Assembly: GCA_036278875.1 (NCBI GenBank)
Contig: DASUKF010000021.1
Span: forward strand, 1 to 62,437
Origin: Candidatus Saccharimonadales bacterium
GTDB lineage: Bacteria; Patescibacteriota; Saccharimonadia; Saccharimonadales; 2-12-FULL-41-12
Length of the DNA stretch: 62,437 nt
Direction: 5' to 3'
Below the pieces are notes generated by a model that worked only from the letters and a program-made list of their open reading frames with translations, was not told the DNA's origin and made no database searches. A program made the position numbers and the translations under genes. Shown here piece by piece: positions 122 to 38,683 of the stretch; the first letter of the stretch is position 1; each line of letters begins with the position of its first letter.

Positions 122-3100
122 CTAGTGGAACTTCTTAGTATCTGAATTACTGCCGTCGGTACCGTATATTCCGTCAGGATAAGGCGGAGAAGCCGAGCCT
201 GAGCAGTTACCGTTTGCTGCTGCTCCATGACATATTTCAGTATTATGATCATCGTTGCGATATATGGTAACCGTACCACTACCGCCGTTCCACTCGACAT
301 TTACAGAACCAGATCCTGGTGCTAAATGTGCTGCGGTAAGATGAAAATTCGATCCATTATTACCACCGCTGAAAGATACCGTCCTGCTGTCACTGGAATC
401 ATACAGAACACTGTCTATCACCTGGGCCCTTACTTCTTTGCTGCCGGATACGGCTACCCTGTATTTATAACTCTTGGTCGACGGACTGGAACTGACCGTA
501 TAGGATGCGACCTGCTTGCCATTGACGAAAAAGTTGAGCTTGCCGGGGAAATCGGCGCTGGACAAGGGATGTGTTCCTTGCCTTACCGTCGCGGTAAAGA
601 CACAGGAGTCGGTACAATTTCCGGGTGTGGTAAGTGTGACTATGGGCTTGGCGTCGCTGCAGCTGTGCACGTCGTCCTTCGCAGTGGTATTGCTTCCGTA
701 TGTGGCATAGCCGTTACCACCGTGGAAGATATCGCCTGAGAATTTGTTCGGCTGTGCATTGTACCCGGTTACGCGGGCTAGCGGCGGCGTACAGTCTGTT
801 GCCAGTTTCTTGGAAACTTTGTCTATGGTGGCCGAACTGCTGCTTCCAGGTCCTTTGTACCAGGACGGGAACAGGTCTGTAGACGGGCTGGGTTCGATAG
901 AGCCGAAGCCTACATGGTTGCGTATGACATAAGCGGGCAGCTGCTGTATGCCCTTGGGCCTGGCCCGCTCCTCTGGTTTGAGGTTTTCATGCACGGTATC
1001 CATATACTCATCCCACATCGGCTGGGTCATCGTTTCCATGGCGCCGCTCATAGCCCGGCTCCTGTTATGGTAGCCGACCCATATTCCGGTAGAATACGCC
1101 GTAGAGAAGCCCATCATCCAGCCGTCTTTGGCGTCGTTGGTCGTACCGGTCTTCATCGAGAATTTCCAGCCGTTGAAGACCTGGGACTTATGCCCAAAAT
1201 AACTTGCTCTCGGGTCGCTCATCATATCCGCCACTATGTAAGCGGCCTGAGCATTCACTACCTGCTTGCCCGGAGAGGGCTTCCACTCATCGATAGTTTT
1301 ACCCCGGGCATCTTCTATCTTAAGTATATAGGTTTGCGGTATCAGCTTGCCGTTGCGTGATATGGTGCTGTAACCGTGCACATGTTCGGCCAGTTTGAGA
1401 TATGCACCGTCGCCAATGGCCGAGGAAGAATAACAGGGCTTTTCTTTTGTCAGTGCGTCGTCGGTGTAGCATTTGTAGCCGCTCCCCACTATATCCGGAT
1501 TGCCTGTGTCTTCAAGCCCCATCTTGTCGGCGGTGCTTATGGTCTTCTTAATTCCTGCTATGAGCATGGCTTTTACCGCCGGGATGTTCCTGGAACCGCC
1601 CAGAGCATAACGCAGGGTAAGCGGTCCCGGCTGACGGAAGTCATAATCGTGCAGACAGTTGCCGGTGGTGGAGCTGTGATTGGTACAAGGATAGCCCGGT
1701 ATGGGGTCCGCCGTATCGTACAGCACCGAGCCGGCGCCGAAGTTCTTGGTATTGGCTATCAGCGAAGTATAGTCATAGGGCTTAAAGCTGGAGCCCGGCG
1801 GCAATTTCAAGTTGGCGTAATTGTTCTGGCCGTATACGGGGTTTCTGAAATCAGGCCCGCCGACCAGTGCAACCACCTGGCCCGTTTTGACATCTTCGGA
1901 TACCAGCGCCGCTACATCGCCGCCCTGAGCGCGAACTCTGTACATACCGTCGGCTATGGTCTTTTCGGCCAGCTTCTGCTTGTCCATATCAAGAGTAGTA
2001 ATAACTTTTAGCCCGCCAAGCTTGACCGTTTCGGCGCCGCGCTCTTCTATCAGTTTTTGTTTGGCGGTCAGGACGAACCACGGAGCTAAAATATTAGAGT
2101 ATTTAGTCTTTCGGGGCTTTATCTTCTTAAGCGTATTAACTTTCATAGCCTTATTTTTTTGCTGCTGGGTTATATAGCCTTGCTGCTGCATCAGGTCCAG
2201 AACATAGTGCTGGCGGTTTATAAGCGCTTTTTTGCTGTATCTTGCGCCGTAAGGCGAATATATTGAAGGCGAACGGGGAATAGCGGCCAGGAAGGCAGCC
2301 TCGTCCAGCGTCATATCCTTGGCTGATTTCTGGAAATAATCGCGTTCGGCGGCTTCAACTCCGTACTGGATATCACCGTAAGGCGCGGTGTTCAGATAAC
2401 CTGTCAATATCTGGTCCTTGCTATAGGTCCTTTCCAGCTCCACTGCCAGGATGAGTTCTTTTATCTTACGGGCATAGGTGCGGTCTTTGGTCCAGTCCTG
2501 GGTCAGCTTGACCAGCTGCTGGGTTATGGTGGAGCCTCCCTGCTGGCTGCCGTGTTCTATGTAGTTGTTGACGCCGGCGCGGATGATTCCTTTCACATCG
2601 AAACCACCGTGCTTATAGAAATCTTTATCCTCTACGGCTACGGTAGCCTCTTTCATATATTTGGATATATCCTGGGATTCTACCGGGTTGCGCTTTACGG
2701 CATCGTAATCTTCCCAGAGCAATACTTTGCCGGTACGGTCATAGTATCTGACCGAGCCGCCGATGTTATTGCCGGATATATCCTTCAGGTTCGGCAGGTC
2801 CTTGCGGAAATATGCGAAAACGCCGATAAGCAGCAGGAATACGGCCAGTATGCCTACGCCTGCCAGTTTCAGCGCCATGATGCCGCCTTCGCGGCTGAAC
2901 CAGTAGTTTGCGACTCTCTTGGGATGTAGGCGGTATAAGATACGCTTGAAACGGTTTTTTGGCAGGGTTGCCAGATAAGCCGCGCGTTTGCGCGCTTTTG
3001 AATCCCGTTTGGCCTGCCATCTGCTCTGGAAATTGCTGTGAAGCTTTATGCGGTTGCCTTTTTTTGTCACGTAATGGCTGCGTGCTCCGCCTGAAGGCTT

Positions 3101-3139
3101 TGCTATCCTTAAGCGGATTTTTTTGTTAGGGCCGGCCAT
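122..3139 (-). CDS. mrcA: Class A penicillin-binding protein (PBP1A; glycosyltransferase + transpeptidase) with a long basic N-terminal tail and a ~230 aa C-terminal extension
   Basis: 1005 aa ORF with one TM helix (ALKLAGVGILAVFLLLIGVFAYF). GT51 motifs EDKDFYKHGG, GGSTITQQLVK and RKIKELILAVELE. Transpeptidase motifs SxxK (SSFKP), SxN (GSRN) and KTG (KTGTT). Confidence 0.93.
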   Translation of the reverse strand: MAGPNKKIRLRIAKPSGGARSHYVTKKGNRIKLHSNFQSRWQAKRDSKARKRAAYLATLPKNRFKRILYRLHPKRVANYWFSREGGIMALKLAGVGILAVFLLLIGVFAYFRKDLPNLKDISGNNIGGSVRYYDRTGKVLLWEDYDAVKRNPVESQDISKYMKEATVAVEDKDFYKHGGFDVKGIIRAGVNNYIEHGSQQGGSTITQQLVKLTQDWTKDRTYARKIKELILAVELERTYSKDQILTGYLNTAPYGDIQYGVEAAERDYFQKSAKDMTLDEAAFLAAIPRSPSIYSPYGARYSKKALINRQHYVLDLMQQQGYITQQQKNKAMKVNTLKKIKPRKTKYSNILAPWFVLTAKQKLIEERGAETVKLGGLKVITTLDMDKQKLAEKTIADGMYRVRAQGGDVAALVSEDVKTGQVVALVGGPDFRNPVYGQNNYANLKLPPGSSFKPYDYTSLIANTKNFGAGSVLYDTADPIPGYPCTNHSSTTGNCLHDYDFRQPGPLTLRYALGGSRNIPAVKAMLIAGIKKTISTADKMGLEDTGNPDIVGSGYKCYTDDALTKEKPCYSSSAIGDGAYLKLAEHVHGYSTISRNGKLIPQTYILKIEDARGKTIDEWKPSPGKQVVNAQAAYIVADMMSDPRASYFGHKSQVFNGWKFSMKTGTTNDAKDGWMMGFSTAYSTGIWVGYHNRSRAMSGAMETMTQPMWDEYMDTVHENLKPEERARPKGIQQLPAYVIRNHVGFGSIEPSPSTDLFPSWYKGPGSSSSATIDKVSKKLATDCTPPLARVTGYNAQPNKFSGDIFHGGNGYATYGSNTTAKDDVHSCSDAKPIVTLTTPGNCTDSCVFTATVRQGTHPLSSADFPGKLNFFVNGKQVASYTVSSSPSTKSYKYRVAVSGSKEVRAQVIDSVLYDSSDSRTVSFSGGNNGSNFHLTAAHLAPGSGSVNVEWNGGSGTVTIYRNDDHNTEICHGAAANGNCSGSASPPYPDGIYGTDGSNSDTKKFH

Positions 3140-3232
3140 GTTAGTATCAATAACTCCTTAGGATCAGTAAGATTTATGTAAGATTTGCTACTCATTATAG
3201 CATTTTTGATTCATCACAACATCGATTTTAGT

Positions 3233-3238
3233 TATACT
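3233..3238 (+). promoter_or_regulatory. Candidate -10 box (TATACT) for tyrS, 7 nt before the ATG (leaderless configuration)
   Basis: TATACT is followed by atccagc and then ATG at 3246. No SD lies between them. The -35 is weak (TTCATC). Confidence 0.35.
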
Positions 3239-3245
3239 ATCCAGC

Positions 3246-4499
3246 ATGCATACAGCTCTTTCTCAGGAACTGAAGTGGCGGGGCTTCTCGTATCAGACTA
3301 CATTTGACGATATATCAGAAGTGGATAAGAAAAAATTCACGTTTTATTGGGGGGTTGACCCCAGCTCGGATTCCATGACTATAGGCAACCTGGCCACAGC
3401 CATGATGGTGCGGTATTTCATCGCCCACGGGCACCACGCGGTACTGCTGGTAGGCGGCGCGACCGGCCTGATAGGCGATCCCGACGGCAAGAGCAAGGAA
3501 CGGGAACTTCTTAACCCTGAGCAGCTTAAAAAGAATTCCGAAGCCATAACCAGGCAATATAAAAGGATATTCAAGGGGCTGGAGTTCGAGATAGTCGACA
3601 ATCAACAGTGGTTCAAAGACATAAAATACATCGACTTCCTGCGCGATATAGGCAAGAACGTGCCGATGCGCCAGATGCTGGGGCGCGAGTTCGTGCAGTC
3701 CAGATTGGGCGAGGACAGTAACGGCATAAGCTATGGGGAATTCAGCTATTCGCTTATACAGGGCTATGATTTTCTGCATCTTTTCAGGACTAAGGGTGTA
3801 ACTCTGCAGGTCTGCGGCTCAGACCAGTGGGGCAACAGCATAGCCGGCGTGGAGATGATAAGAAGGATAGAAGGCAAAGAAGCCCATATCTGGTCCGCTC
3901 CGCTGGTAGTAAACAAATCTACGGGGGCAAAGTTCGGCAAGACCGAAGAAGGCGCCGTCTGGCTGGATGGTGCAAAGACCAGTCCCTATGATTTTTATCA
4001 GTTCTGGCTCAATGTAGAGGATGAGAACGTCGAAGATTATCTGAAGATATACACGCTCCTTAGCAAAGAAGAAATAGAAGCGGTCATTGGTGAGTTTCAA
4101 AAAGAACCGGGACAGAGAAAAGCCCAGAAAACGTTAGCCCGTGAAGTTACCCGGCTTGTGCATGGAGAGGAAGAAACCGAATCCGTAGAGCGGATAACCG
4201 CCTGCCTGTTCGGCTCGTCAGATTATTCCGGGCTCACGGCTAAAGATATCGCTACGATGAAACAGATGCTGCCGTCACACGAGGCAAAAGCCGGCGAAAG
4301 TCTGATCCAGGCTTTGGTTTCTACCGGACTGGTCAGCTCGGGCAGTGAAGCCAGGCGCATGTTCGCTCAGAACGCCATAACGCTCAACGGCAAGCCGGCC
4401 GATGAAAACTACACGCTCAAGGAATCCGACGCACTCGCCGCCGGCCACACTATTGTCAGAAAAGGCAAGAACAAGTACGCCATAGTCGAAATTAAATAA
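3246..4499 (+). CDS. tyrS: Tyrosyl-tRNA synthetase
   Basis: 417 aa. It has a HIGH-like region DPSSDSMTIGNL, a KMSKS-like KFGKT and a C-terminal S4-like RNA-binding domain. Length and layout are typical of bacterial TyrRS. Confidence 0.9.
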   Translation: MHTALSQELKWRGFSYQTTFDDISEVDKKKFTFYWGVDPSSDSMTIGNLATAMMVRYFIAHGHHAVLLVGGATGLIGDPDGKSKERELLNPEQLKKNSEAITRQYKRIFKGLEFEIVDNQQWFKDIKYIDFLRDIGKNVPMRQMLGREFVQSRLGEDSNGISYGEFSYSLIQGYDFLHLFRTKGVTLQVCGSDQWGNSIAGVEMIRRIEGKEAHIWSAPLVVNKSTGAKFGKTEEGAVWLDGAKTSPYDFYQFWLNVEDENVEDYLKIYTLLSKEEIEAVIGEFQKEPGQRKAQKTLAREVTRLVHGEEETESVERITACLFGSSDYSGLTAKDIATMKQMLPSHEAKAGESLIQALVSTGLVSSGSEARRMFAQNAITLNGKPADENYTLKESDALAAGHTIVRKGKNKYAIVEIK

Positions 4500-4531
4500 A
4501 TATTGTATAATTAACTATATAACTATGAGGA

Positions 4532-4942
4532 ATGTACGTGGCGGCAGAAGGCAAGATTGAAGAAGCCCCAAGGATACTGCGGTCTTCTTCCCGCGAGGGT
4601 GTTTTTTGGACATCTGTCGCGGTTGTAGGGGTTGGCCTTACGGCTCTAATAGGCGCGCTTTACGGCTATGACAACTATTCTTTTAGCCATTCAGAACTGG
4701 AGGGATTCTCCCTACCGGCAAAGACAAGAGAGTTGAAATCCACGCAGTACGGAACTTTAAAGTTTGTGGTTCCACGGTCTGAAGCAGCAGAACTTGTCTG
4801 TGGAAAATATAACCGAGCTTTAAATACGGATATAGATTTTGATAATGATATAACCCTTATAGATGCGCAAAGTTCAATAGTCAGCTGTATCCCCGACCAC
4901 AGCACTGAATCCTTATTCGGGCAGACTCCCGCTCTGCCGTAA
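4532..4942 (+). CDS. Hypothetical membrane-anchored protein (N-terminal TM helix)
   Basis: 136 aa ORF with hydrophobic segment VFWTSVAVVGVGLTALIGALYGY. GAGGA lies upstream, so GTG at 4538 is an alternative start. No recognisable family. Confidence 0.5.
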   Translation: MYVAAEGKIEEAPRILRSSSREGVFWTSVAVVGVGLTALIGALYGYDNYSFSHSELEGFSLPAKTRELKSTQYGTLKFVVPRSEAAELVCGKYNRALNTDIDFDNDITLIDAQSSIVSCIPDHSTESLFGQTPALP

Positions 4943-11435: not shown

Positions 11436-11464
11436 TTGCGTGTTATTAGCATATGTGTTATAAA
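11436..11464 (+). promoter_or_regulatory. Candidate promoter of the his leader: TTGCGT, 17 nt spacer, extended -10 TGtTATAAA
   Basis: -35 at 11436-11441, TGT at 11456-11458, -10 at 11459-11464. The ATG at 11471 lies 6 nt after the hexamer. Confidence 0.5.
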
Positions 11465-11470
11465 AGACGT

Positions 11471-11527
11471 ATGTTCAAAAGAACTTTTCAGCATCATTCT
11501 CATATACTGCCGGAGCGTGTCGGTTAG
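11471..11527 (+). CDS. Candidate his-operon leader peptide MFKRTFQHHSHILPERVG (18 aa)
   Basis: Three His codons fall in a 4-codon window (CAT CAT TCT CAT, 11492-11503). The ORF sits between a promoter and an intrinsic terminator, directly upstream of hisS-hisGHAFIE. Confidence 0.45.
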   Translation: MFKRTFQHHSHILPERVG

Positions 11528-11569
11528 TTAGCTTTTTCCTTGAAAATCCTACGCCGGACTCGCTCCGGC
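11509..11569 (+). promoter_or_regulatory. Candidate antiterminator pairing of the his attenuator
   Basis: GCCGGAGCG (11509-11517) is the exact reverse complement of CGCTCCGGC (11561-11569), which is the terminator loop plus 3' arm. Confidence 0.5.
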
Positions 11570-11575
11570 GTTTTT
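11551..11575 (+). terminator. Intrinsic terminator within the hisS leader
   Basis: ACGCCGGA-CTCGC-TCCGGCGT is an 8 bp GC-rich stem with a 5 nt loop, followed by a T run. Confidence 0.7.
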
Positions 11576-11623
11576 AGTACCTTATTTATTAGATAGAATA
11601 TACTGTTAGAAAAGAAGGAAACC

Positions 11624-29064: not shown

Positions 29065-31152
29065 ATGGCAGAAAAGAAATATGCAATAGAAGACATCAGG
29101 AACATCGGTATCATCGCGCATATCGATGCCGGCAAGACCACCACTACTGAGGGTATTCTGTACCGGACCGGCTTGAAGCACAAGATTGGCGCCGTCCACG
29201 AGGGCGAAACCACCACCGACTGGATGGCCCAGGAGCGCGAGCGCGGGATCACTATCGTTTCTGCCGCCGTTACCTGCTATTGGAAAAACAAACAAATAAA
29301 TATTATCGATACACCGGGACATATCGATTTTACCGTGGAAGTAGAACGCTCACTACGCGTGTTGGACGGCGCCGTAGTCGTATTCGACGGCAAGATGGGG
29401 GTAGAGTCACAATCCGAAACCGTTTGGCGCCAGGCTGACAAATACGAAGTGCCGCGTATCTGCTTTATCAACAAGATTAACCAGACCGGCGGCGATTTCT
29501 ATAAATCGCTCGATACCATTCATGCGCGCCTTTCCAAGCGTGCATTTCCTATACATCTGCCGATAGGTTTTGAACAGAAAGTAAGCGGCGTGGTAGACCT
29601 GGTTGATATGAAGGCTTACACCTACAAGGAATTCACCGATAAGGAACTGGTCGTCGGTGAAATCCCTGAAGACATGCAGGATAAAGCCCGGAAGTACCGT
29701 TCATTGCTGATAGAAAACGCCGTAGCCGAAGATGAAAAGATGCTGGAAAAATACCTGGAGGTTGGCGAAGAAGGCCTATCCGACGAAGATATCCGCCATG
29801 CTATCCGCTCAGCCGTACTTACCGGACAGTTCTTCATCGTCAGTGGCGGCGACGGGCGCGGTGTCATTGTGGAAAAACTTCTGGACATAGCTACCGAATA
29901 TCTACCGAACCCTATAGACAGAGGCGGCGCACTGGGTAAGCATCCTAAGACCGACGAAGCGCTCCAACGCGAGCCGGACGCATCCAAGCCTTTGGCAGGA
30001 TTGGCGTTCAAGATAGCTACCGACCCGTTCGTCGGCAAACTGGCGTATTTCCGTGTGTATTCCGGCAAACTCACCGCCGGCAGCTACGTATTCAACAGCT
30101 CAACGGGCAATAAGGAACGTATCGGACGTATCGTGCGCATGCAGGCTGACAAGCGCGAAGAGATAAAAGAAGTAGAAGCCGGTGATATCGCCGCTATTGT
30201 CGGGCTCAAGGACACAACCACCGGCAACACGCTTTCTGATCAAAACCATCCGATAGTACTAGAGAGTATAAATTTTCCGGAGCCGCCGGTCAGTATCGCT
30301 ATAGAGCCTAAGACCAAATCAGACCAGGAAAAGATGAGCCTTGCACTGCAGAGATTAGCGGAAGAGGATCCGACTTTCCGAATCAAAGTAGACGAAGAAA
30401 CCGGCCAGACTATTATTAGCGGTATGGGCGAATTGCATCTTGAAATAATCGTAGACAGGATGAAGCGCGAGTTCAATGTGGAAGCCAACGTAGGTCAGCC
30501 GCAGGTAGCTTACCGGGAAACTATCCGCAAAGATGCCGTAGAAGTACAGGGTAAATTCATCAGACAGTCCGGCGGACGCGGCCAGTACGGCGACGTGTGG
30601 CTCAGATTAAGTCAGAATGAAACCGGCGGCGGATTCGAATTCATCAATTCCATCAAGGGTGGCGCAATCCCCCAGGAATACATAAAACCCGTCGAAGAAG
30701 GTATAAAAGAAGCTATGAATAACGGAGTTCTGGCCGGATACCCGGTAGTGGATGTAAAAGCCGAGCTTTATGACGGAAGCTACCATGATGTCGACTCATC
30801 CGAAATGGCATTCAAAATAGCCGGCTCAATGGCACTCCAGGAAGGCGTGAAGAAGGCGAATCCGGTCCTGCTTGAACCAATCATGAAAGTCGTAGTAGTA
30901 ACTCCTGAAGAATTCATGGGCGATGTCATTGGAGACCTTAACTCTAAGCGCGGCCGCGTAGAGTCCATGGATGACCTGCCCAATAGTATTAAACAGATAA
31001 CCGCATTCGTTCCTTTAGGCGAGATGTTCGGCTATACCACCAACTTGCGCAGTATGACACAGGGCCGTGCAGCCTCAAGTATGGAGCTTGACCACTACGC
31101 AGACGTACCGCCGAACGTAGCCGAAGCCATCATTGCCAAAAGCAGCAAATAA
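29065..31152 (+). CDS. fusA: Elongation factor G
   Basis: 695 aa. [32 protein letters not shown]. Domains II-V are conserved. Confidence 0.96.
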
Positions 31153-31167
31153 TAATATATTTTAGCC

Positions 31168-31620
31168 ATGGCAAGTATCGAAGCCCAAGGTGAGCTGTTA
31201 AATGAGTTTGTAGGAAGGACTGAACCATCCCCTGAATTAGTTGACAGGGCCCAGGGCTTAGTAGAAGTATGGGATGAAATTAACCAGGGCCCCGCGATGA
31301 TATACGCCAGAGCCGCTAATGAAACCACTTATGACAAAATAGATGCGACTGATTCAAAAGTAATGAGAGGATTATACAAAGCGGTAATAGTCGGACGTGC
31401 TTCATTATCATTATTGATGGACTCTCCCAGAATAGTGAAGTGTATGGTAAGCGAAAGTAGTTTTGAGCGACAGTTGAAGCGGGAATATGGCTGGACATTT
31501 CACAAACCCTCTCCCAATCCTGAATATTCAAGACGCCCAGTACCTAAAAAACCTATAGTTGACTACGCTAGAGAATTAATTGAGCTGAAACAGAATGAAG
31601 GAGAAACCGTTTTAGCCTAG
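31168..31620 (+). CDS. Hypothetical protein (150 aa)
   Basis: ORF directly after fusA. TATATT (31156-31161) lies 6 nt before the ATG. More AT-rich than its neighbours. No family recognised. Confidence 0.5.
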   Translation: MASIEAQGELLNEFVGRTEPSPELVDRAQGLVEVWDEINQGPAMIYARAANETTYDKIDATDSKVMRGLYKAVIVGRASLSLLMDSPRIVKCMVSESSFERQLKREYGWTFHKPSPNPEYSRRPVPKKPIVDYARELIELKQNEGETVLA

Positions 31621-31690
31621 TTCTAGAAATCAAATAAACAACTTGCTATTGCTTGCATTTAGACGCTTTTGGATTAAAATAATTCAGAAT

Positions 31691-32068
31691 ATGTTAGTTT
31701 CCCGGGATACTTTAGAAAGTGCAGAAAGATTGGATGTATGGGCCAAAAGACGCGAGGCTTTGGCTGATAGCGCCCACTCAAAATTGAGAAATAGACAGTT
31801 CCTTGGAGCGGCAGGTGATTTTACGTTGAATCTACTCGCGAAAATACCCGAAAGTGTGCGGAAATCCGGCTTCCGCTCTCATGCAAGTACGGATGAGGCG
31901 GTAGGAGTTACATCACAGCTAGTAATAACCTGCGAGGCTACGGATGCGGCCAATGAAAGATTGTTTGTTACCGATGAAGGGCTGGCTTTAAGATTAGGCG
32001 TTCCTAAAGGGCAAATGATACCCGAAGTGCAGCTGGCCAGAACCGTCTTAGCAGACTCTGCCGCTTAA
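31691..32068 (+). CDS. Hypothetical protein (125 aa)
   Basis: ATG at 31691 is preceded by TTGCAT (31653-31658), a 16 nt spacer and TAAAAT (31675-31680). The stop overlaps the convergent aroC stop (TTAA). Confidence 0.45.
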   Translation: MLVSRDTLESAERLDVWAKRREALADSAHSKLRNRQFLGAAGDFTLNLLAKIPESVRKSGFRSHASTDEAVGVTSQLVITCEATDAANERLFVTDEGLALRLGVPKGQMIPEVQLARTVLADSAA

Positions 32069-33150
32069 CCGTTCTGAGCCTTATTTCTCAAATAGTGGTC
32101 CATTATGACCAGGGCGCTCATGGCGTCGACTATCGGTATGGCGCGGGGCAGTACGCAGGGGTCATGCCTGCCGGTAGCTTCTACTTCGACTTCGTTTTTT
32201 TCTAAATCAAGCGTCTTTTGTTTTTTACTGATGGTAGAAACGGGCTTTATCGCTACACGGAAATATATATCTTCGCCGTTACTGATACCGCCGAGTGTGC
32301 CGCCGGCATTGTTAGTTCGGGTACGGATGCGCCCGTCTTTATCCGTATAAAACTCATCATTGTGCTCGCTGCCGCGCATATCGGCGCCTGCGAACCCGGA
32401 ACCTATATCGAACCCTTTGACGGCATTGATGCTAAGCATGCCTTTGCCTAAATCGGCACTGAGTTTATCGAACACAGGCTCGCCAAGGCCTATCGGGCAG
32501 CCTCTTATCAGACCCACTATGATCCCGCCGACGGAATCGCCGCTGTCGCGAACTTCTTCTACCAGCTTTATCATTTCGTTGGCCGCGATGTTATCCGGGC
32601 ATCTGATGATGTTCGATTCTATCTGTTCCTGCGTAACCAGTGATTTATCGACATTTGCTTCGATATCACCGACCTGCTGGACATAGCTCAATATATCTAT
32701 GTTCAGCTTTTCTTTAAGATATTTCTTGGCTATGGCTCCAGCTGCTACGCGGGCCAGGGTTTCTCTTGCCGAAGCACGTCCGCTGCCGCGCCAGTCGCGG
32801 ATTCCATATTTAGCTTGGAAAGTGTAGTCGGCGTGCCCCGGCCTGTAAAGTTTTCTCAGCTGGTCGTAATCTTCAGGACGGATATCCTCGTTCTGAGCCA
32901 GAAGCATTATCGGCGCTCCGGTAGTCACGCCTTCGTAAATCCCGGAAAGTATATGCACCTTGTCCTTTTCGGCCCGTGGAGTGGTTATATCGCTCTGCCC
33001 CGGTTTGCGCCTGTCCAGTTCTTTCTGGATGTCTTCCGCTGTTATTGCCAGATTTGGCGGACAGCCGTCTATAACGCAGCCTACACCGCCGCCGTGCGAT
33101 TCTCCGAAGGTAGTAATCCTGAATAGTTGTCCGAATGTGTTTCCCGCCAT
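32065..33150 (-). CDS. aroC: Chorismate synthase
   Basis: 361 aa. MAGNTFGQLFRITTFGESHGGGVGCVIDGCPP, RPGHADY, GRHDPCV. Confidence 0.94.
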   Translation of the reverse strand: MAGNTFGQLFRITTFGESHGGGVGCVIDGCPPNLAITAEDIQKELDRRKPGQSDITTPRAEKDKVHILSGIYEGVTTGAPIMLLAQNEDIRPEDYDQLRKLYRPGHADYTFQAKYGIRDWRGSGRASARETLARVAAGAIAKKYLKEKLNIDILSYVQQVGDIEANVDKSLVTQEQIESNIIRCPDNIAANEMIKLVEEVRDSGDSVGGIIVGLIRGCPIGLGEPVFDKLSADLGKGMLSINAVKGFDIGSGFAGADMRGSEHNDEFYTDKDGRIRTRTNNAGGTLGGISNGEDIYFRVAIKPVSTISKKQKTLDLEKNEVEVEATGRHDPCVLPRAIPIVDAMSALVIMDHYLRNKAQNG

Positions 33151-33836
33151 TAATCTGTCCTTTTTATTCTTTCCATTATCTTATCGAACTCTTGGCGCGT
33201 AATCTGGCCCGGCGCCGATGCTTCTTCTTCTGTTTCCGGTATAAATATTAGCGCGTTTCCCCATAAAGCGCCAAAAACACGGGTAATTTTACCTTCTTCG
33301 CCCATGCCCAGCACAATGTGCCTGCGGTCGTTTTTCAGGAATTTTACCTTCAGCTTGATAAGCCTTAATGCATCATCGGAGGAATTGCACATGGTAGAGA
33401 GCTTTATGATGCCGGGGGAGTAGGCTTCCATCTCGTTTACAGTCTTTTCCAGTTCATCATATGCCGGAGTTGAATCATAGTTATGGTATGAGCAGATAAG
33501 GTTGTTATCTTTGCCGGAGCTTTTCAGGTAATTCAGCTCTTCCTTTTGAATGACTATATCCAAATCAACCAGACAGTTTTTACTAGTAGCAGTATCCAGT
33601 ACTTTTTTGCGTTCTTCAAAGGGCATTTTAATCGGTTCCAGATTTTGCCGGCGAAGCACCAGGATTATTCTGTCCGGGTATTTATCTATTAACTCCACAG
33701 TAAAATCCGTGTCGAAATCCTCTATATAATCCAGCCAGACTTCAAAGAAACCATAATTCTCCCCGAACTTGTCCAGAGTATCCAGCACATCCTTTTTACT
33801 CCGTTTTATAACCGGCAGGCAGTATCTGTCTTTCAT
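33150..33836 (-). CDS. aroD: 3-dehydroquinate dehydratase, type I
   Basis: 228 aa of type I length and pattern (FEVWLDYI, ICSYHNYDSTP, active-site Lys region IIKLSTM). Overlaps the flanking aro genes by 1 and 4 nt. Confidence 0.8.
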   Translation of the reverse strand: MKDRYCLPVIKRSKKDVLDTLDKFGENYGFFEVWLDYIEDFDTDFTVELIDKYPDRIILVLRRQNLEPIKMPFEERKKVLDTATSKNCLVDLDIVIQKEELNYLKSSGKDNNLICSYHNYDSTPAYDELEKTVNEMEAYSPGIIKLSTMCNSSDDALRLIKLKVKFLKNDRRHIVLGMGEEGKITRVFGALWGNALIFIPETEEEASAPGQITRQEFDKIMERIKRTD

Positions 33837-36448
33837 TTCAGCTTCCCTATAATACTTTTTCTTATGATTTCTTCTGGCGCATCTTTCCCCGTGAACAATC
33901 TGAACTGGGCGAAGGCCTGTTCCAGGAGCATCTCTATGCCGGATATGGTTTTGGCCCCGGATTTTTCAGCATCTTTTAGCAGTCTTGTCTTTAGTGGCGA
34001 ATAAACCACATCGTATACTATCTGCCCGCTTTGTAGCAGGGAAGGATTTATTGGTGATTTATCCTCATCCATACCGACAGAAGTAGTATTGCAGATAATG
34101 TCGCAATCTTTAATTTCTTCAATAGCTTGCAAGTCCGCATACTTGCAGCCGAATCTTTCTGCCAGAAGCCTGGCTTTATCAACCGTGCGGTTATATATGG
34201 TCACGTCGCAGCCGGCCCGGGTAAGTCCGTACGCGAACGCCTTGGCTGTTCCGCCGCCGCCTATTATCGCGGCTTTCTTTTCTTTTAACTCTGTGATTCT
34301 TCTAAGCGGCTCGACGGCACCTATCCAATCGGTGTTATATCCTCTTAAAATACCGTTTTCCTGAACTATCGTATTGACTGCGCCTATCTTTTCCGCAATC
34401 GGGTCTATACTGTCCAGGAATGGAATTACGAGCTCCTTATGCGGCATGGTCAGGCTTACGCCTCGTATGTCGCGGTTTTTTATCTGTTCTATGAAACTGC
34501 CGACGTTATCGGGTTTTACACGCCTGGCTTCATAAACGAACTCATCGTCTATCCCCAGCTCCCTGTAGCCTAGATTATGGATGTCGGGCGAAAGGGAATG
34601 CTTGATAGGGTCGCCTATGACCATGCATATCTTCGGCGTATGCTGTCCGAGTTTATCCAGTATATTGTTAGCTATGCGGTTGGGGCTGTCGGACGTGGTG
34701 TCGAATACGAAATCTGCATAGCGGAAATAATTTCCCTTGCGTTTTCTCCATACTTCGCCAAGTTCGCCTATGAGCGTCGGCTGGGTACTAAGCTCCGGCC
34801 GGTTCTTGTCCGTCCTGATGCGCATAGACAGTATCCTAGGCTCGGCTTTTAAAAGAAGGGTCAAGCAGTCATCGGCAAAATACTTCATATTTTCAGAATC
34901 CAACACTATTCCGCCGCCGGAAGAAAAAATACGATTCTTTTTGCGGCTGACTTCAGCGCATATATCAGACTCCAGCCTGCGGAAGCGGTCCCAGCCGTCT
35001 TCCAACACGATATCGCGGATTTTTTTGCCGTATTTTTCTTCAAGATATTCATCCATGTCTATGAATTCTTTGCCCAGCTTTTTTGCGAGTGTTTTACCCA
35101 CGGTGGTTTTGCCGCTGCCGCGCATCCCTACAAGCAATATGCTGGAAAACTTTCTCTCAACAACGCTTAAATTCGTTATCTTTTTTAATTCATCCCAAAA
35201 TCCGGGGAAAGTTTTGTCTACTACGCCGGGGTCGGTTATTTCTATGCCCGGTGTCTTAGTCCCGGCTACCGCGAACGACATCGCTATCCGGTGATCGCCG
35301 TAACTGTCTATCAGGCTTCCTGACGGCTCGCCGCCTTGTATCGTCAGGCTTTCCTCTGTGGAATCCGAGCTTATACCCATTTTTGCCAGTTCATTCTCCA
35401 GTGCGACTATACGTTCCGTTTCCTTGACGCGAAGCGAGCCTATGCCCCTGATAGTAGACTTACCCGGGGCGAATGCGGCAAGTACGGCCATGGTCATGGC
35501 CTGGTCCGGACATTTCTGCATATTCACTTCAATCGGTCGTATACTGCCGCCTGTCACTGTTATAGAGTTGTCACCGGTTTCAATTTTGGCATTCATTTCG
35601 CCCAATACATTCAGGAACTGTCTATCGGCTTGTTTGGAATCCGGGTTTAGGTTGCTTACCGTAACTTTGGAACCGTTAAGTACTGCCGCGGCGAAAAAAT
35701 AAGCGGCGCTGGAGAAGTCGCCTTCGACATGATATTTATCGGCTTCATATTTCTGGGGTTTTATCTCATAGGATTCATGATCGTAAGCTTTTACATCTAC
35801 GCCGAACTTATGCATCACGTCCAGGGTCATATCTACATAAGGCGCTGATATCTGTTTTCCTTCTATTTTTATCTCAGCAGGGGTTTTTAAAAGAGGCGAT
35901 ATTAAAAGGAGTGCGGATAGGAACTGGCTACTTGTTCCGCCGCTGATACGGGCTTTGCTTTTGTTTAGAGAAGAACTGCTTACTTTTATGGGCGGGAAAC
36001 CTTCTTTGCCTAAGTAGGTTATATCTGCGCCAAGACTTCTGAGCGCCTCTACAAGGTCGCCTATAGGCCTGTTATTCAGGCCTTCTTCGCCGGTGATTAT
36101 CTGCTTGCCTGGTACGATGGAGCATAAAGCGGTGATAAAGCGTATGGTTATACCTGAAAGGCCGGCATTTAGCTCAAAATCCTTATCCTTTATGTCTTTT
36201 ATGCTTCCTTTTACTATAAATTCGTCATTTGTTATATCTATTTTTATACCGAGTTTATTCAGGCAACGGCTCATGGATTTCGTATCGTCACTTAAAAGAG
36301 CGCCGGTTATTTTTACCGGGGTTTCAGACAATGCAGCCGCCAGAAGTGCTCTGTTGGTATAGCTTTTAGAGCCGGGCACCTCTACTGCGGTTTCAAATGG
36401 GCCGGCTACCGGTTTGATACCGGCGGCCTTTAACTTTAAGATATCCAT
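33833..36448 (-). CDS. aroA/aroK/aroE: Trifunctional fusion: EPSP synthase (aa ~1-425), shikimate kinase (~430-600) and shikimate dehydrogenase (~605-871)
   Basis: One uninterrupted 871 aa frame. AroA: VPGSKSYTNRALLAAAL, GGTSSQFLSALLL, DHRIAMSFAV. AroK: Walker A GMRGSGKTT, SSGGG. AroE: GDPIKHSLSP, TMPHKE, GAVNT, GYNTDWIG, GGGGTAKA. Confidence 0.9.
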   Translation of the reverse strand: MDILKLKAAGIKPVAGPFETAVEVPGSKSYTNRALLAAALSETPVKITGALLSDDTKSMSRCLNKLGIKIDITNDEFIVKGSIKDIKDKDFELNAGLSGITIRFITALCSIVPGKQIITGEEGLNNRPIGDLVEALRSLGADITYLGKEGFPPIKVSSSSLNKSKARISGGTSSQFLSALLLISPLLKTPAEIKIEGKQISAPYVDMTLDVMHKFGVDVKAYDHESYEIKPQKYEADKYHVEGDFSSAAYFFAAAVLNGSKVTVSNLNPDSKQADRQFLNVLGEMNAKIETGDNSITVTGGSIRPIEVNMQKCPDQAMTMAVLAAFAPGKSTIRGIGSLRVKETERIVALENELAKMGISSDSTEESLTIQGGEPSGSLIDSYGDHRIAMSFAVAGTKTPGIEITDPGVVDKTFPGFWDELKKITNLSVVERKFSSILLVGMRGSGKTTVGKTLAKKLGKEFIDMDEYLEEKYGKKIRDIVLEDGWDRFRRLESDICAEVSRKKNRIFSSGGGIVLDSENMKYFADDCLTLLLKAEPRILSMRIRTDKNRPELSTQPTLIGELGEVWRKRKGNYFRYADFVFDTTSDSPNRIANNILDKLGQHTPKICMVIGDPIKHSLSPDIHNLGYRELGIDDEFVYEARRVKPDNVGSFIEQIKNRDIRGVSLTMPHKELVIPFLDSIDPIAEKIGAVNTIVQENGILRGYNTDWIGAVEPLRRITELKEKKAAIIGGGGTAKAFAYGLTRAGCDVTIYNRTVDKARLLAERFGCKYADLQAIEEIKDCDIICNTTSVGMDEDKSPINPSLLQSGQIVYDVVYSPLKTRLLKDAEKSGAKTISGIEMLLEQAFAQFRLFTGKDAPEEIIRKSIIGKLK

Positions 36449-36473
36449 CCTACCAATAATAATTCAAAAAGGT

Positions 36474-36502
36474 TAGACAGCGAAGTTTTTATAGATTAGA
36501 AT
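36474..36502 (+). promoter_or_regulatory. Candidate promoter of the cys leader: TAGACA, 17 nt spacer, TAGAAT, 7 nt before the ATG
   Basis: -35 at 36474-36479 and -10 at 36497-36502. ATG at 36510. Confidence 0.5.
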
Positions 36503-36509
36503 AATTAGG

Positions 36510-36581
36510 ATGATTTTAAATGTTAAACGCGGTTTGAGCATGTGTCGCAGCTGTATGCACGGCTGTTGCCTCAATTGTTAG
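36510..36581 (+). CDS. Candidate Cys-rich leader peptide MILNVKRGLSMCRSCMHGCCLNC (23 aa)
   Basis: The last 13 codons include 5 Cys and 2 Met. The ORF sits between a promoter and an intrinsic terminator, upstream of cysH. Confidence 0.5.
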   Translation: MILNVKRGLSMCRSCMHGCCLNC

Positions 36582-36600
36582 ATTAAATAAAGCTAACCAT

Positions 36601-36631
36601 AACCTCCCGAGCAACAGCCGGGAGGTTTTTT
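36601..36631 (+). terminator. Intrinsic terminator within the cysH leader
   Basis: AACCTCCCG-AGCAACAGC-CGGGAGGTT is a 9 bp stem ending in a T6 run. Its loop and top are complementary to 36560-36572 in the leader ORF. Confidence 0.75.
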
Positions 36632-36656
36632 AATTTGTCAAAAATAGGAGAATGGA

Positions 36657-37385
36657 ATGACTTACAAGATTAAATCAATAGCAGCCGACATAGCTCGCCT
36701 GAACAACCGTCTTGACGGCTTAAGCCCGGAAGAGATAATCCGCTGGGCTGATAGGAGCTTTGCCGGCGGCCTGTATGCCGCCTCAAGCTTCGGCGCCGAA
36801 TCGGCGCTGCTTTTAAGCGCTATTAAAAAAACCGGAATCAGCATACCGATAGTTACTATCGACACCGGATTCTGGTTTCCTGAAACGCATGAGTTCATGG
36901 ATCGTCTGGCGGACGAATACGGCCTGGATATACGGGTATTCAGCCCGGATAAAGAAGATATAAAGCGCATAGACAAGACTTTCCTTTGGACTGACAGTAT
37001 AGAATCGTACAACCGGATAACCAAGCTGGAGCCTATGAGCCGGGCCGCCGAAGAGCTTGGCATCAGAGCGTTATTGTCCGGAGCGCGTCGTTATCAGACC
37101 GCTGGCCGCTCCAGGCTGCGTCACCTGGAGGTAGGAAATGACGGCGAAATACGGATTTATCCGTTCATAGACTGGACACGCGAAGAAGTGGAGAAGCTGT
37201 TCCGGCGCAAAGAATTGCCCAGACACCCCCTATACGACCTGGGGTATGAATCCATAGGCGACTGGACGATAACCCGGCCGGGTACGGGACGTGACGGCAG
37301 AAACCTCGGTATAAGAAACGAATGCGGTCTTCATATACTGCCGGGAAGCAACAAGCATTTTCAGACCATCCGGCCAACAGGATAA
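36657..37385 (+). CDS. cysH: Phosphoadenosine phosphosulfate (PAPS) reductase
   Basis: 242 aa. PP-loop-like SSFGAESALL, DTGFWFPET, GARRYQTAGRS, C-terminal catalytic motif ECGLH. No Fe-S cysteine cluster. SD AGGAG. Confidence 0.85.
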   Translation: MTYKIKSIAADIARLNNRLDGLSPEEIIRWADRSFAGGLYAASSFGAESALLLSAIKKTGISIPIVTIDTGFWFPETHEFMDRLADEYGLDIRVFSPDKEDIKRIDKTFLWTDSIESYNRITKLEPMSRAAEELGIRALLSGARRYQTAGRSRLRHLEVGNDGEIRIYPFIDWTREEVEKLFRRKELPRHPLYDLGYESIGDWTITRPGTGRDGRNLGIRNECGLHILPGSNKHFQTIRPTG

Positions 37386-37501
37386 AAATACTTTACAAAC
37401 TTCTTAGTTTGCTTTAACATATTTTGGTAGCTTGCGTGGGTATTAGTATACTCATGCTAAAATATTTCTAACTATCAATATTCAAGGAGACCAAAGAACA
37501 A

Positions 37502-38683
37502 ATGGCAGACTTTGATCGAAGCAAACCCCATATTAACGTCGGTACCATGGGTCACGTTGACCACGGTAAGACTACATTAACCGCGGCTATTACCGCCGTG
37601 CTGGCCAAGAAACTTCCCAGCGATGTCAACAAGCCTATAGCTTATGACCAGATTGACAATGCCCCCGAGGAAAAACAGCGTGGTATCACCATCGCTACCT
37701 CCCACCAGGAATACGAAAGTGAAAAACGCCACTACGCACACGTTGACATGCCGGGACATGCCGACTACGTAAAGAATATGATTACCGGTGCTGCGCAGGT
37801 AGACGGTGCTATCTTGGTCGTTTCTGCCGCAGACGGCCCTATGCCTCAGACCCGCGAACACGTGCTACTGGCACGCCAGGTCGGTGTACCCAGCATATTG
37901 GTATTTATGAACAAGATGGACCTGGCCGATCCCGAATTGGTCGAGCTGGTTGAAGAAGATATCCGCGACCTGCTTGCTAAGAACGATTTCGACCGAGACT
38001 GTCCTATTATCAAGGGTTCTGCCACTAAGGCTCTTGAAGGTTCTGCAGAGGACGAAGACGCTATCATGGAACTGATTAAGGCCATGGACGACTATATTCC
38101 GGAGCCTAAGCGCGACCTCGACAAGCCTTTCCTGATGCCTATCGAGGACGTATTCTCCATCAAAGGACGTGGTACTGTTGCTACCGGACGTATCGAAACC
38201 GGTATAGTTAAAATGAACGACGAAGTAGAAATCGTCGGTATCAAAGACACTCACAAAACCGTTGTTACAGGGATTGAAGCATTCAAGAAAAACCTCGACC
38301 AGGGTCAGGCGGGCGATAACGCAGGCCTTCTGCTCCGAGGTATAGAGCGCGATGATATAGAGCGTGGACAGGTACTTTGCAAGCCGGGTTCTATTACTCC
38401 GCACACTGAATTTGACGCGGAAGTATATGTCCTTACCAAGGAAGAAGGCGGACGGCACACACCGTTCTTCAAAGGTTACAAGCCTCAGTTTTATTTCCGA
38501 ACCACTGATGTTACCGGCGAAGTCGAACTTCCGGCTGACAAAGAGATGGTCATGCCCGGCGACACCGTAACATTCAAGGTCAAACTGCTCGCGCCTATTG
38601 CTATGGACCAGGGTCTTCGCTTCGCTATTCGCGAAGGCGGACGAACCGTAGGCGCCGGCGTCGTTACAAAAATCAACAAATAG
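37502..38683 (+). CDS. tuf: Elongation factor Tu
   Basis: 393 aa. [27 protein letters not shown]. Conserved throughout. Confidence 0.97.

Follow-up and report, generated by a model that had tools for sequence, protein, structure and literature searches.

The gene cysH, which encodes phosphoadenylyl-sulfate (PAPS) reductase, occupies positions 36657–37385 of the forward strand in a 62,437-nt window (the whole stretch of DNA analysed here) on contig DASUKF010000021.1 of the Saccharimonadales assembly GCA_036278875.1 (Saccharibacteria, candidate phyla radiation). Its product matches PF01507 and the NCBIfam model NF002537 (189.6 bits, cut-off 154) and carries an ECGLH motif at its C-terminal end. 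No other sulfate-pathway genes were seen within the 62-kb window. A first-pass annotation of this DNA had described a promoter, a short Cys-rich open reading frame (ORF), an intrinsic terminator and a competing antiterminator helix upstream of cysH, all on the forward strand, and all of these features were found where it had placed them. The Shine–Dalgarno (SD) sequence AGGAG that it had listed between the terminator and cysH is also present, at a position corrected here to 36646–36650, which is outside the terminator hairpin and 6 nt 5′ of ATG 36657.

The leader ORF (MILNVKRGLSMCRSCMHGCCLNC, 36510–36581) comprises 23 codons and opens with ATG 36510; no other start codon lies between this ATG and the preceding in-frame stop. 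Five codons specify Cys (36543, 36552, 36564, 36567 and 36576) and two internal codons specify Met (36540 and 36555), in agreement with the earlier description. The adjoining Met and Cys codons at 36540–36545 (AUG UGU) are conserved and represent the predicted sensing position, at which the Cys codon would sit in the ribosomal A site.

Upstream of the ORF is the best promoter-like match in the interval 35800–37600 (10 of 12 positions), consisting of the −35 hexamer TAGACA (36474–36479), a 17-nt spacer and the −10 hexamer TAGAAT (36497–36502), as had been proposed. The −10 hexamer ends 7 nt before ATG 36510, and the predicted transcription start (36509–36510) coincides with the A of the leader AUG or precedes it by 1 nt. 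This short distance, along with the lack of an SD sequence, leads us to predict that the leader mRNA is leaderless.

The intrinsic terminator extends from 36601 to 36631. Its hairpin (AACCTCCCG-AGCAACAGC-CGGGAGGTT, 36601–36627) begins 19 nt past the leader stop codon, has a 9-bp stem plus two inner pairs and is joined to a run of six U nucleotides (36626–36631); its folding energy is −18.7 kcal/mol. A consensus terminator scan missed this hairpin only because the loop limit of the scan is 8 nt. Canonical intrinsic terminators are used elsewhere in the genome, for example after tuf. A second element of the same build, carrying His codons, precedes a his operon in the same genome (11459–11575); the first-pass annotation had noted the resemblance to a His element at 11436–11623.

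Conservation of the leader among Saccharibacteria

The design is present in 11 distinct loci of uncultured Saccharibacteria, namely that of the window and ten others (L002, L009, L013, L010, L012, L003, L007, L006, L015 and L020), whose CysH proteins are 47–78% identical. Promoter, SD-less ATG, Cys-rich ORF, terminator and alternative helix occur in every one of them. Three gene contexts occur, divergent aro genes followed by cysH and tuf, the order fusA–cysH–tuf and the order argS–cysH–DPRP, and one of the 11 loci combines an unrelated gene neighbourhood with a different terminator sequence. The terminator is also retained in a further locus, L005. The CysH protein P0003 (74% identical) was left out of the leader comparison.

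Promoter geometry is conserved along with the ORF. A T[AC]GACA hexamer is found at the equivalent place in nine of the 11 loci, and a TAnnnT hexamer ends 6–8 nt before the leader ATG in the relatives, six of which have TATGCT, except in L009, where the distance is 10 nt; counting the window, the 6–8-nt gap holds for 10 of 11. No SD sequence precedes the leader ATG in any of the 11 loci, and an (A)GGAG-type SD lies shortly 5′ of the start codon at every cysH shown. The internal, conserved ATG 36540 was considered as the true start and rejected, as it has neither an SD sequence nor promoter geometry; in each of the 11 loci, moreover, the first ATG is followed by an uninterrupted frame.

The leaders comprise 20–33 codons, the longest being that of L007, and contain 4–7 in-frame Cys codons. 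Met-Cys is found in 10 of 11 leaders, as is Cys-Cys, which is absent from L007. Met-Cys and Gly-Cys-Cys are the only conserved leader residues. Comparing upstream regions in related genomes, a check suggested by the first-pass annotation, thus gave the outcome it had anticipated: the Cys codons are kept in frame while length and the remaining residues drift. On sequence grounds, this is the pattern expected for a sensing ORF rather than for a folded peptide.

The element is absent from three more distant cysH loci (CysH 41–46% identical). A scan of genome contigs with CysH yielded one distant locus (L004, 41%), which is without the leader and serves only to mark the boundary of the leader-bearing clade. 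No matches to the leader-core pattern were found in viral contigs. Searches of Rfam at the gathering threshold for the whole window, and at E ≤ 10 for 36400–36700, returned nothing relevant; the best sub-threshold leader-type match was Phe_leader (18.5 bits, E 0.96, against a gathering score of 55).

The terminator shows similar persistence. Its distance from the leader stop codon is 17–27 nt across the loci, and a run of five to seven U nucleotides follows the hairpin in every locus, as it does in the terminator after tuf. Compensatory changes preserve the stem, with CUCCCG/CGGGAG becoming CUUCCG/CGGAAG in L010 and L006 and GACCCC/GGGGUC occurring in L015. Assignment of the hairpin to the upstream gene (fusA in L010, L012 and L020) was rejected because in four loci (the window, L002, L009 and L013) the gene on that side points the other way, and because the promoter before the ORF is conserved.

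Predicted mutually exclusive folds of the leader RNA

Nucleotides 36560–36572, which span the codons for His-Gly-Cys-Cys-Leu, can pair with nucleotides 36609–36620, which take in the terminator loop together with the final base of the 5′ arm before it and the two opening bases of the 3′ arm after it. We call these the 5′ and 3′ strands of the antiterminator, segments 2 and 3. As the first-pass annotation had reported, the helix contains a one-nucleotide bulge; it has 12 pairs and a duplex energy of −21.6 kcal/mol, where shuffled ORF segments give −12.9 ± 3.3 kcal/mol (z −2.7, P = 0.014). Individual z-scores across the loci are modest, ranging from −1.1 to −4.8. A helix of 10–17 bp joining the Gly-Cys-Cys codons to the terminator top is found in 11 of 11 loci, and its first pair lies 17–22 nt from the first base of the first Cys codon in the ten loci measured.

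MAFFT alignments of the leader and terminator are out of structural register because of loop-length changes and a different stem in L015. Pairing was assessed by per-locus duplex prediction, a test of cognate against non-cognate pairs and an anchor-based pair table. Cognate pairs of ORF and terminator have a mean energy of −20.3 kcal/mol, compared with −18.9 kcal/mol for non-cognate pairs (permutation P = 0.04). The flanks of the antiterminator vary on both strands at about six positions and G–C to G–U changes occur in the core, whereas L009 and L013 each carry one uncompensated internal mismatch. The covariation that the first-pass annotation had called for is therefore seen in part: both strands change in the antiterminator flanks, but the antiterminator core is nearly invariant, so that covariation of this helix rests on the flanks and on about eight independent sequences.

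Minimum free energy (MFE) structures were computed for ten loci with or without masking of ribosome-covered positions, the stalled case on a truncated transcript. In the ribosome-free RNA, the MFE structure of all ten combines the terminator with pairing of segment 2 to an upstream strand, segment 1 (36544–36554), which in the window pairs with 36559–36569 at −11.9 kcal/mol. With a ribosome at the stop codon, only the terminator forms and the antiterminator is absent, again in ten of ten. With a ribosome stalled at the first Cys codon of a truncated transcript, the antiterminator (10–15 pairs) becomes the MFE structure in all ten loci. The mutual exclusivity of terminator and antiterminator that had been proposed is thus upheld in both comparison and folding, and segment 1, which would act as an anti-antiterminator, would complete the earlier model with the classical layout of 1:2, 2:3 and 3:4 pairings.

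The folds also refine which codons can serve for sensing. The earlier logic, in which a ribosome at the stop codon gives termination and one stalled at the first Cys codons gives readthrough, agrees with the predictions for the stop codon and for the first Cys codon; the later Cys codons are unfit for the role. A stall at the second Cys codon leaves seven antiterminator pairs, and the terminator then prevails, whereas stalls at codons three to five cover segment 2 fully. These last three Cys codons sit in or 3′ of segment 2, where a stall favours termination, and their conservation is unexplained by the attenuation model.

Two results bear on how such a switch could operate. Even when a stalled ribosome is included, the terminator fold of the window exceeds the antiterminator fold in stability by 5.4 kcal/mol, and L009 is similar (−17.8 against −12.8 kcal/mol); control must therefore be kinetic, and readthrough depends on an assumed order of folding during transcription. 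Furthermore, when the RNA has been made only to 36620, an intermediate length, the antiterminator is the MFE structure without any ribosome, so termination as the default of the untranslated leader is not secure.

A model for attenuation of cysH

These features probably constitute a ribosome-mediated transcription attenuator for cysH that senses Cys through charged tRNA-Cys, and perhaps also Met, a reading in which we have good confidence. From sequence features, their conservation and predicted folds we infer where transcription starts, that the ribosome stalls, in what kinetic order the RNA folds and how expression responds to cysteine. A more tentative proposal, to which we give slightly less than an even chance, is that cysH in a clade of Saccharibacteria is under the control of a leaderless leader peptide and an intrinsic terminator, with a his-operon element of the same build in the same genome.

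If the attenuator model is correct, transcription would begin at, or 1 nt before, AUG 36510, and the 23-codon ORF would be translated from a leaderless 5′ end. When Cys is plentiful, the ribosome would reach the stop codon at 36579, where it would cover segment 2 but stop short of the terminator at 36601; the hairpin and U run would form and transcription would end before cysH. When no ribosome is present, segment 1 would sequester segment 2, and the terminator would form too.

When charged tRNA-Cys is scarce, the ribosome would stall with the first Cys codon (36543, in the conserved Met-Cys pair) in its A site. In this position it would melt segment 1, with its front edge about 4 nt short of segment 2, which could then pair with the emerging terminator apex (36609–36620) before the 3′ arm of the terminator is synthesized. 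The resulting 12-bp helix would occupy the loop, flanked by no linker at one end and by just one unpaired base (36608) at the other. Such a helix would be incompatible with the stem, so the hairpin would fail to close in time and RNA polymerase would read into cysH.

Alternative explanations

The mini-ORF might instead encode a functional Cys-rich micropeptide, for example one with metal or redox activity, one that matures into a RiPP or one that partners CysH, with the hairpin acting as a leaky terminator between co-transcribed genes. The conserved Cys residues and the pattern Cys-x(2–4)-Cys … Cys-Cys in 11 loci would suit such a peptide, and the attenuation model has no need of Cys codons three to five. 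However, the spacing of the Cys residues varies, as do peptide length (20–33 residues) and every residue other than Cys, Met and Gly, whereas GGCUGUUGC is kept at the nucleotide level, synonymous positions included, and at all loci finds its complement in the terminator apex. No genes for modification enzymes or transporters occur near the leader ORF in the gene neighbourhoods of the window and its relatives, and a strong terminator separating partner genes would be unusual. We regard a micropeptide as quite improbable.

An ORF that senses Cys could also act on cysH translation, by unmasking of the ribosome-binding site or by coupling, with the hairpin being a non-working terminator. Precedent comes from mycobacteria, in which Ms5788A, a leaderless polycysteine ORF characterized by experiment, exerts its effect at translation (10.1101/834739), and the terminator arms do resemble anti-SD and SD sequences (CCUCC and GGAGG). 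Against this, the SD of cysH lies 15 nt past the U run and is largely unpaired in the folding ensemble (unpaired probabilities of about 0.6–0.8 for the first three of its five bases, those covered), which led us to reject sequestration of the SD, and the run of U nucleotides behind every hairpin is that of a terminator such as the one after tuf. Translational control of this kind is thus very unlikely.

A third possibility is that the two folds are switched by ligand binding, as in a riboswitch, or in trans by an RNA-binding protein or a tRNA, and that the ORF is incidental. The alternative structures can indeed be drawn independently of translation, and sulfur genes in other phyla are under riboswitch or T-box control. 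The absence of any Rfam family at threshold led us to drop riboswitch and known-leader readings, and no conserved structured domain remains for ligand binding. An incidental ORF also sits poorly with the conservation, in 11 loci, of an uninterrupted frame, of Cys codons within it and of the spacing between promoter and ATG, and the 17–22 nt between the first Cys codon and the helix fits a ribosome footprint. We give this explanation a very low probability.

Finally, a Cys-rich ORF and its complementarity could be accidents of an AT-rich spacer beside an ordinary terminator. Cys makes up only 0.67% of residues in the proteins of the window, and the probability of at least five Cys in 22 codons is 3 × 10−7 at that frequency or 3 × 10−4 for random codons; because the window contains 662 short ATG ORFs, for which the latter value gives an expectation of about 0.2 in one genome, the significance from a single genome is modest, as are the single-locus duplex scores. 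As judged from sequence comparison, however, recurrence of the whole design in 11 loci with CysH proteins only about 50% identical, one of them with another gene context and terminator sequence, settles the question and already refutes chance, leaving it next to no probability.

Relation to known leader-peptide systems

Classical leader-peptide attenuators, known from Proteobacteria and Actinobacteria, include trpL, hisL, pheL, thrL and ilvL, as well as pheM for pheST. The ribosome-mediated attenuator proposed here resembles them in having a short ORF, rich in codons for the end-product amino acid, upstream of a pathway gene, in having segments that can form 1:2, 2:3 (antiterminator) and 3:4 (intrinsic terminator) pairings with ribosome position setting the fold, and in having a terminator that is thermodynamically stronger than the antiterminator. 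It differs in that the leader has no SD sequence and lies at the predicted 5′ end of the transcript, in its predicted sensing of Cys and in its occurrence in Saccharibacteria. Unlike in classical systems, moreover, the antiterminator is predicted to pair with the terminator loop and the top of the stem rather than mainly with the 5′ arm, and several regulatory codons fall within and after segment 2.

The first-pass annotation had stated that attenuation by a leaderless leader peptide was not described, which was an overstatement. In mycobacteria, stalling at the Cys codons of leaderless polycysteine short ORFs (Ms5788A and the ‘Cys ribulon’; Canestrari et al. 2020, Mol Microbiol 114:93) relieves repression (10.1101/834739). 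The cysH leader is predicted to share with these a leaderless short ORF with clustered Cys codons before a gene of cysteine metabolism and remodelling of mRNA pairing by a ribosome stalled at those codons. The mycobacterial criterion of at least two consecutive Cys codons (10.1101/834739) describes 10 of the 11 Saccharibacteria leaders, L007 having none. Ms5788A, however, unmasks a ribosome-binding site and so exerts translational control, which its authors contrast with terminator-based models (10.1101/834739), whereas the Saccharibacteria leader ORF is separated from cysH by a canonical hairpin and U run, with the SD left unsequestered. There is also no sequence relationship to the mycobacterial ORFs, which belong to another phylum with another G+C content.

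The claim is weakened further by the uORFC-8-2 motif upstream of cysS in Rhodobacterales (Brewer et al. 2021), for which the available text of the report describes a predicted uORF with conserved Cys codons in a stem, followed by an intrinsic terminator, and proposes, as a prediction only, ribosome-mediated attenuation in response to Cys-tRNA (PMC8632094). A Cys-codon uORF followed by an intrinsic terminator is thus common to both. In that text, uORFC-8-2 serves a tRNA synthetase gene of Alphaproteobacteria rather than a sulfur-assimilation gene, and a leaderless start, predicted for the cysH leader, is not part of the description (PMC8632094). Compared by description, Cys positions and stems also differ, with uORFC-8-2 having two tandem Cys codons at positions of about 14–15 in the first of two stems, and a terminal U run (PMC8632094). 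Candidate leader ORFs with Cys runs near the stop codon were likewise noted before cys/cbs operons of Actinobacteria (Seliverstov et al. 2005), where, in the absence of terminator hairpins, Rho-dependent termination was suggested (PMC1262725). These are also short Cys-codon ORFs upstream of a cysteine gene, but the cysH element has an explicit, conserved terminator and antiterminator.

What is new is therefore the occurrence in this lineage, cysH as the target and the pairing of a predicted leaderless start with a terminator, by which the element joins the mycobacterial leaderless Cys sensor to the classical terminator-based attenuator. A limited literature search found no earlier report of leader-peptide attenuation in Saccharibacteria, and the element, if it acts as proposed, would be the first ribosome-mediated transcription attenuator family known from the candidate phyla radiation. 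As a cis-regulatory element in Saccharibacteria it is well defined, conserved and testable, and it would also aid genome annotation, as in at least one case (L012) the public gene call for cysH extends through the leader and terminator.

Saccharibacteria are small-genome epibionts commonly taken to be auxotrophic for amino acids. If the attenuator works, ribosomes would read the leader mRNA from its 5′ end, and transcription and translation would be tightly coupled in these organisms from the very first mRNA nucleotide. The invariant Met-Cys pair would make the leader a joint sensor of both sulfur amino acids. By tying cysH expression to the charging of tRNA-Cys, the attenuator would bear on whether small-genome epibionts make their own cysteine, and, if real, it would argue that cysH feeds cysteine synthesis in these supposed auxotrophs.

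A leader element upstream of cysH

The region preceding cysH contains the promoter, leader ORF, terminator and antiterminator pairing described in the first-pass annotation. On the plus strand, a −35 hexamer TAGACA (36474–36479) is separated by a 17-nt spacer from a −10 hexamer TAGAAT (36497–36502) that ends 7 nt 5′ of an ATG at 36510, and this pair is the top sigma-70-like match (10 of 12 positions) in the 1.8 kb scanned. The ATG, which is the earliest start codon downstream of an in-frame stop, opens a plus-strand ORF encoding MILNVKRGLSMCRSCMHGCCLNC and a stop codon (36510–36581). The proteins of the window contain 0.67% Cys, and the presence of 5 Cys in 22 codons has a probability of 3 × 10−7 at that frequency, or 3 × 10−4 for random codons, although the window’s total of 662 short ATG ORFs makes this single-genome significance only modest.

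Beginning 19 nt 3′ of the ORF stop codon is a plus-strand terminator, AACCUCCCG-AGCAACAGC-CGGGAGGUU with a U6 run (36601–36631), whose hairpin folds at −18.7 kcal/mol and is absent from a simple terminator scan solely because the loop limit of that scan is 8 nt. Its arms (36601–36627) resemble anti-Shine-Dalgarno (AACCUCC) and Shine-Dalgarno (SD; GGGAGG) sequences. The SD AGGAG reported before cysH is present, at the corrected position 36646–36650. The antiterminator comprises 12 pairs between nucleotides 36560–36572 (segment 2, within the ORF) and 36609–36620 (segment 3), with a duplex energy of −21.6 kcal/mol, compared with −12.9 ± 3.3 kcal/mol for shuffled ORF segments.

Conservation among cysH loci

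Related cysH loci (designated by L numbers) were gathered by two protein searches, contig look-ups and a metagenome scan, and span 41–78% CysH identity. A Cys-rich mini-ORF and a terminator precede cysH in 10 further distinct loci, or 11 including the window. The additional leader peptides are MNLNLKHGLNMCGGCKMHGCCPYC (L002), MNLLDKNSMCNGCRVSSCCSIC (L009), MNLVFHSRSCMCSRFQDAGCCCDC (L013), MKRAYDHFDMCSRYHCAGCCSC (L010), MKRAIIQFGMCSQQSCAGCCSR (L012), MQRATLQSRMMCSPQSCAGCCSR (L003), MRRANIYSMMCSLQSCAGCC (L020), MKQLAADQIGTQTIQITNRGGMCSQCPCAGCPL (L007), MSSLKSKQICMRSCMPEGRCCD (L006) and MKQTTTVMMCCMDNCSCCCCDS (L015). The L005 locus is cut by a contig end and retains the terminator. Gene contexts differ, with cysH-tuf divergent from aro genes in the window, L002, L009 and L013, fusA-cysH-tuf in L010, L012 and L020, and argS-cysH-DPRP-mscL in L015. 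Across these contexts, the element has therefore stayed with cysH.

Cys codons are conserved in these relatives, and Met-Cys and Gly-Cys-Cys are the only peptide features kept among the 11 loci, whereas length and the remaining residues drift, as would be expected of a sensing ORF rather than a folded peptide. Gly-Cys-Cys is in frame in 10 of the 11 loci. The first Cys codon directly follows a Met codon in 10 of 11 leaders, and internal Met is enriched roughly threefold, which suggests that the leader may sense Met and Cys jointly. The possibility that the mini-ORF encodes a functional Cys-rich micropeptide is disfavoured by the variation in Cys spacing and peptide length, by conservation of GGCUGUUGC at the nucleotide level and by the location of the terminator between the mini-ORF and cysH.

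The leader ATG lies 6–8 nt after the end of a −10 hexamer of the form TAnnnT, often TATGCT, in 10 of 11 loci; the gap in L009 is 10 nt. A T[AC]GACA or TTGCAC sequence precedes the −10 at 16–17 nt, or is replaced in L006 by a TGn extended −10. This geometry predicts that the transcript starts at the A of the leader AUG or 1–2 nt upstream. No leader ATG compared is preceded by a suitably spaced SD, and every cysH shown has an (A)GGAG-type SD shortly 5′ of its start codon. Conservation of reading frame and promoter geometry, along with the lack of any Rfam match to the leader region, disfavours a riboswitch or protein switch. Translational control as in mycobacteria is likewise disfavoured, given that the cysH SD lies outside the hairpin and that in all loci the hairpin leads into a U run.

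The leader element is missing at three more distant cysH loci, L004 (41%), L016 (46%) and L018 (43%). The L018 gene lies within a sulfotransferase/polysaccharide cluster (933–4509), adjoining sulfotransferase, methyltransferase and polysaccharide pyruvyl transferase genes. This setting suggests that such distant CysH-like genes have a function linked to PAPS but not to the synthesis of cysteine. At L012, the public cysH call (2501–3241; 246 amino acids) takes a TTG at 2501 as its start, which places its first codon within the leader ORF and makes the call span the terminator; the SD-led ATG at 2589 is likely the true start. Unannotated leaders can thus distort gene calls.

Covariation and alternative folds

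Covariation lends the proposed design real but limited support. In the terminator stem, L010 and L006 have CUUCCG/CGGAAG in place of CUCCCG/CGGGAG, and L015 has the unrelated GACCCC/GGGGUC. The antiterminator core, GCUGUUGC with GCAACAGC, is nearly unvarying, apart from G-U pairs that replace G-C in L010, L007 and L006. In its flanks, about six positions have changed on both strands yet remain paired, with L006 and L015 being the most informative. One uncompensated mismatch is retained in each of L009 and L013. Pairing of an ORF with its cognate terminator is favoured by a mean of 1.4 kcal/mol over non-cognate pairing (permutation p 0.04, with sequences partly non-independent). Recurrence of the whole design across the 11 loci rules out chance.

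Ten leaders were folded with a mask over the ribosome-covered positions that extended up to 12 nt beyond the initial base of the codon in the A site, and the predicted structure changes with ribosome position. Without a ribosome, segment 2 pairs with bases further upstream in the ORF, around the Met-Cys codon (segment 1, 36544–36554 in the window), leaving the terminator intact in all 10 loci. When the first Cys codon occupies the A site and the transcript ends at the antiterminator 3′ strand, the antiterminator is the minimum free energy (MFE) structure, with 10–15 pairs (10/10). A ribosome at the stop codon allows the terminator alone to form.

For full-length RNAs with a stalled ribosome, terminator and antiterminator folds are equal in energy in L010, L003 and L006 and lie 0.1 kcal/mol apart in L013, and the terminator is better by 1.1–1.7 kcal/mol in L012, L007 and L015, by 3.9 in L002, by 5.0 in L009 and by 5.4 in the window. 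In a length series for the window, 12 antiterminator pairs form with RNA out to 36620–36624, and the terminator prevails only once 36627 is available. These modelled energies indicate that the choice must be kinetic, as is the decision of the Escherichia coli trp attenuator.

Across loci, the antiterminator takes up the terminator loop, 1–4 bases of the 5′ arm and 1–5 bases of the 3′ arm. In the window, a single free base (36608) separates the 12-bp helix from the 5′ strand of the stem, and on the 3′ side helix and stem directly adjoin. Because an H-type pseudoknot needs a loop spanning the helix, this geometry implies that helix and stem cannot coexist, in agreement with the mutual exclusivity originally claimed.

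The first Cys codon lies 17–22 nt 5′ of the first antiterminator pair and the stop codon 17–27 nt 5′ of the terminator, and both spacings fit a ribosome footprint. Cys codons 3–5 fall within segment 2 or beyond it, and a ribosome stalled there would favour termination; Gly-Cys-Cys is possibly retained because its codons need to pair with two partners, segment 1 and the terminator apex. Conservation and folding support the original reading of a Cys-responsive leader-peptide transcription attenuator, which we consider highly probable. Beyond the features, conservation, spacing and predicted folds observed here, this mechanism would entail a transcript start at the predicted site, ribosome stalling at Cys 12 (the first Cys codon, 36543), an order of folding and a physiological response to Cys.

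Genomic neighbourhood and other leader-like elements

According to its NCBI record, the cysH product derives from a ‘Candidatus Saccharimonadales bacterium’ assembly. It scores above cut-off for PF01507 and NCBIfam NF002537 and carries the ECGLH motif, as in the PAPS-reductase type. No other sulfate-pathway genes were seen within the window, which elsewhere carries an rpoBC/str/S10 ribosomal region and a his operon. Downstream of cysH are tuf and a patatin-like gene. Divergently upstream are an AroA-AroK-AroE fusion (33833–36448, minus strand; 871 amino acids; EPSP synthase, shikimate kinase and shikimate dehydrogenase), then aroD and aroC; in L013, AroA-AroK and AroE are separate. In L010, L012 and L020, cysH lies between fusA and tuf inside the str/S10 ribosomal cluster, and in the window (at 29065–38683), L002, L009 and L013 the divergent aro operon is additionally inserted upstream. 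A minus-strand promoter-like site, TTAACA-17-TATTCT (36498–36526), has a −10 overlapping the plus-strand TAGAAT almost base for base, and could form a bidirectional promoter also serving the aro operon.

A second element of the same build (11459–11575) looks like a leaderless His attenuator. An extended −10, TGn-TATAAA (11456–11464), is followed after 6 nt by an ATG at 11471 opening the ORF MFKRTFQHHSHILPERVG (11471–11527), and by a terminator, CGCCGGA...UCCGGCG with U5, ending at 11575. In-ORF nucleotides 11508–11517 pair with the terminator 3′ side in the free MFE structure (z −3.96), and a hisS/hisZ-like gene, hisG, hisH, hisA and hisF lie downstream. Just 3′ of tyrS (4500–4607), a TATAAT-like box precedes a short ORF, MRNVRGGRRQD (4525–4560; 4 Arg in 11 residues), followed by a hairpin and T6 (about 4575–4607) that may merely be the tyrS terminator.

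Relation to known attenuators

In Mycobacterium smegmatis, experiments have established leaderless polycysteine ORFs as attenuators that respond to Cys (10.1101/834739). The characterized example acts by unmasking a ribosome-binding site, whereas the window has an SD outside the hairpin and a terminator with a U run; the authors of the mycobacterial study set their example apart from terminator-based attenuation and left transcription or translation open for other loci. The Cys leader peptides predicted in Actinobacteria in 2005 lack terminators (PMC1262725), in contrast to the element described here. For Rhodobacterales, a uORF with Cys codons and an intrinsic terminator at its end has been proposed upstream of cysS (PMC8632094), rather than cysH. 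Because of these precedents, the novelty originally claimed does not extend to the kind of element. It does hold for the lineage: our literature search, whose coverage is incomplete, turned up no account of attenuation by leader peptides in Saccharibacteria or the candidate phyla radiation. Also new are the target, cysH, and the joining of a leaderless start to a classical terminator/antiterminator in which the antiterminator binds the top of the terminator. The element is a well-supported new variation on a textbook mechanism, from a phylum that is still poorly understood, rather than a new kind of system.
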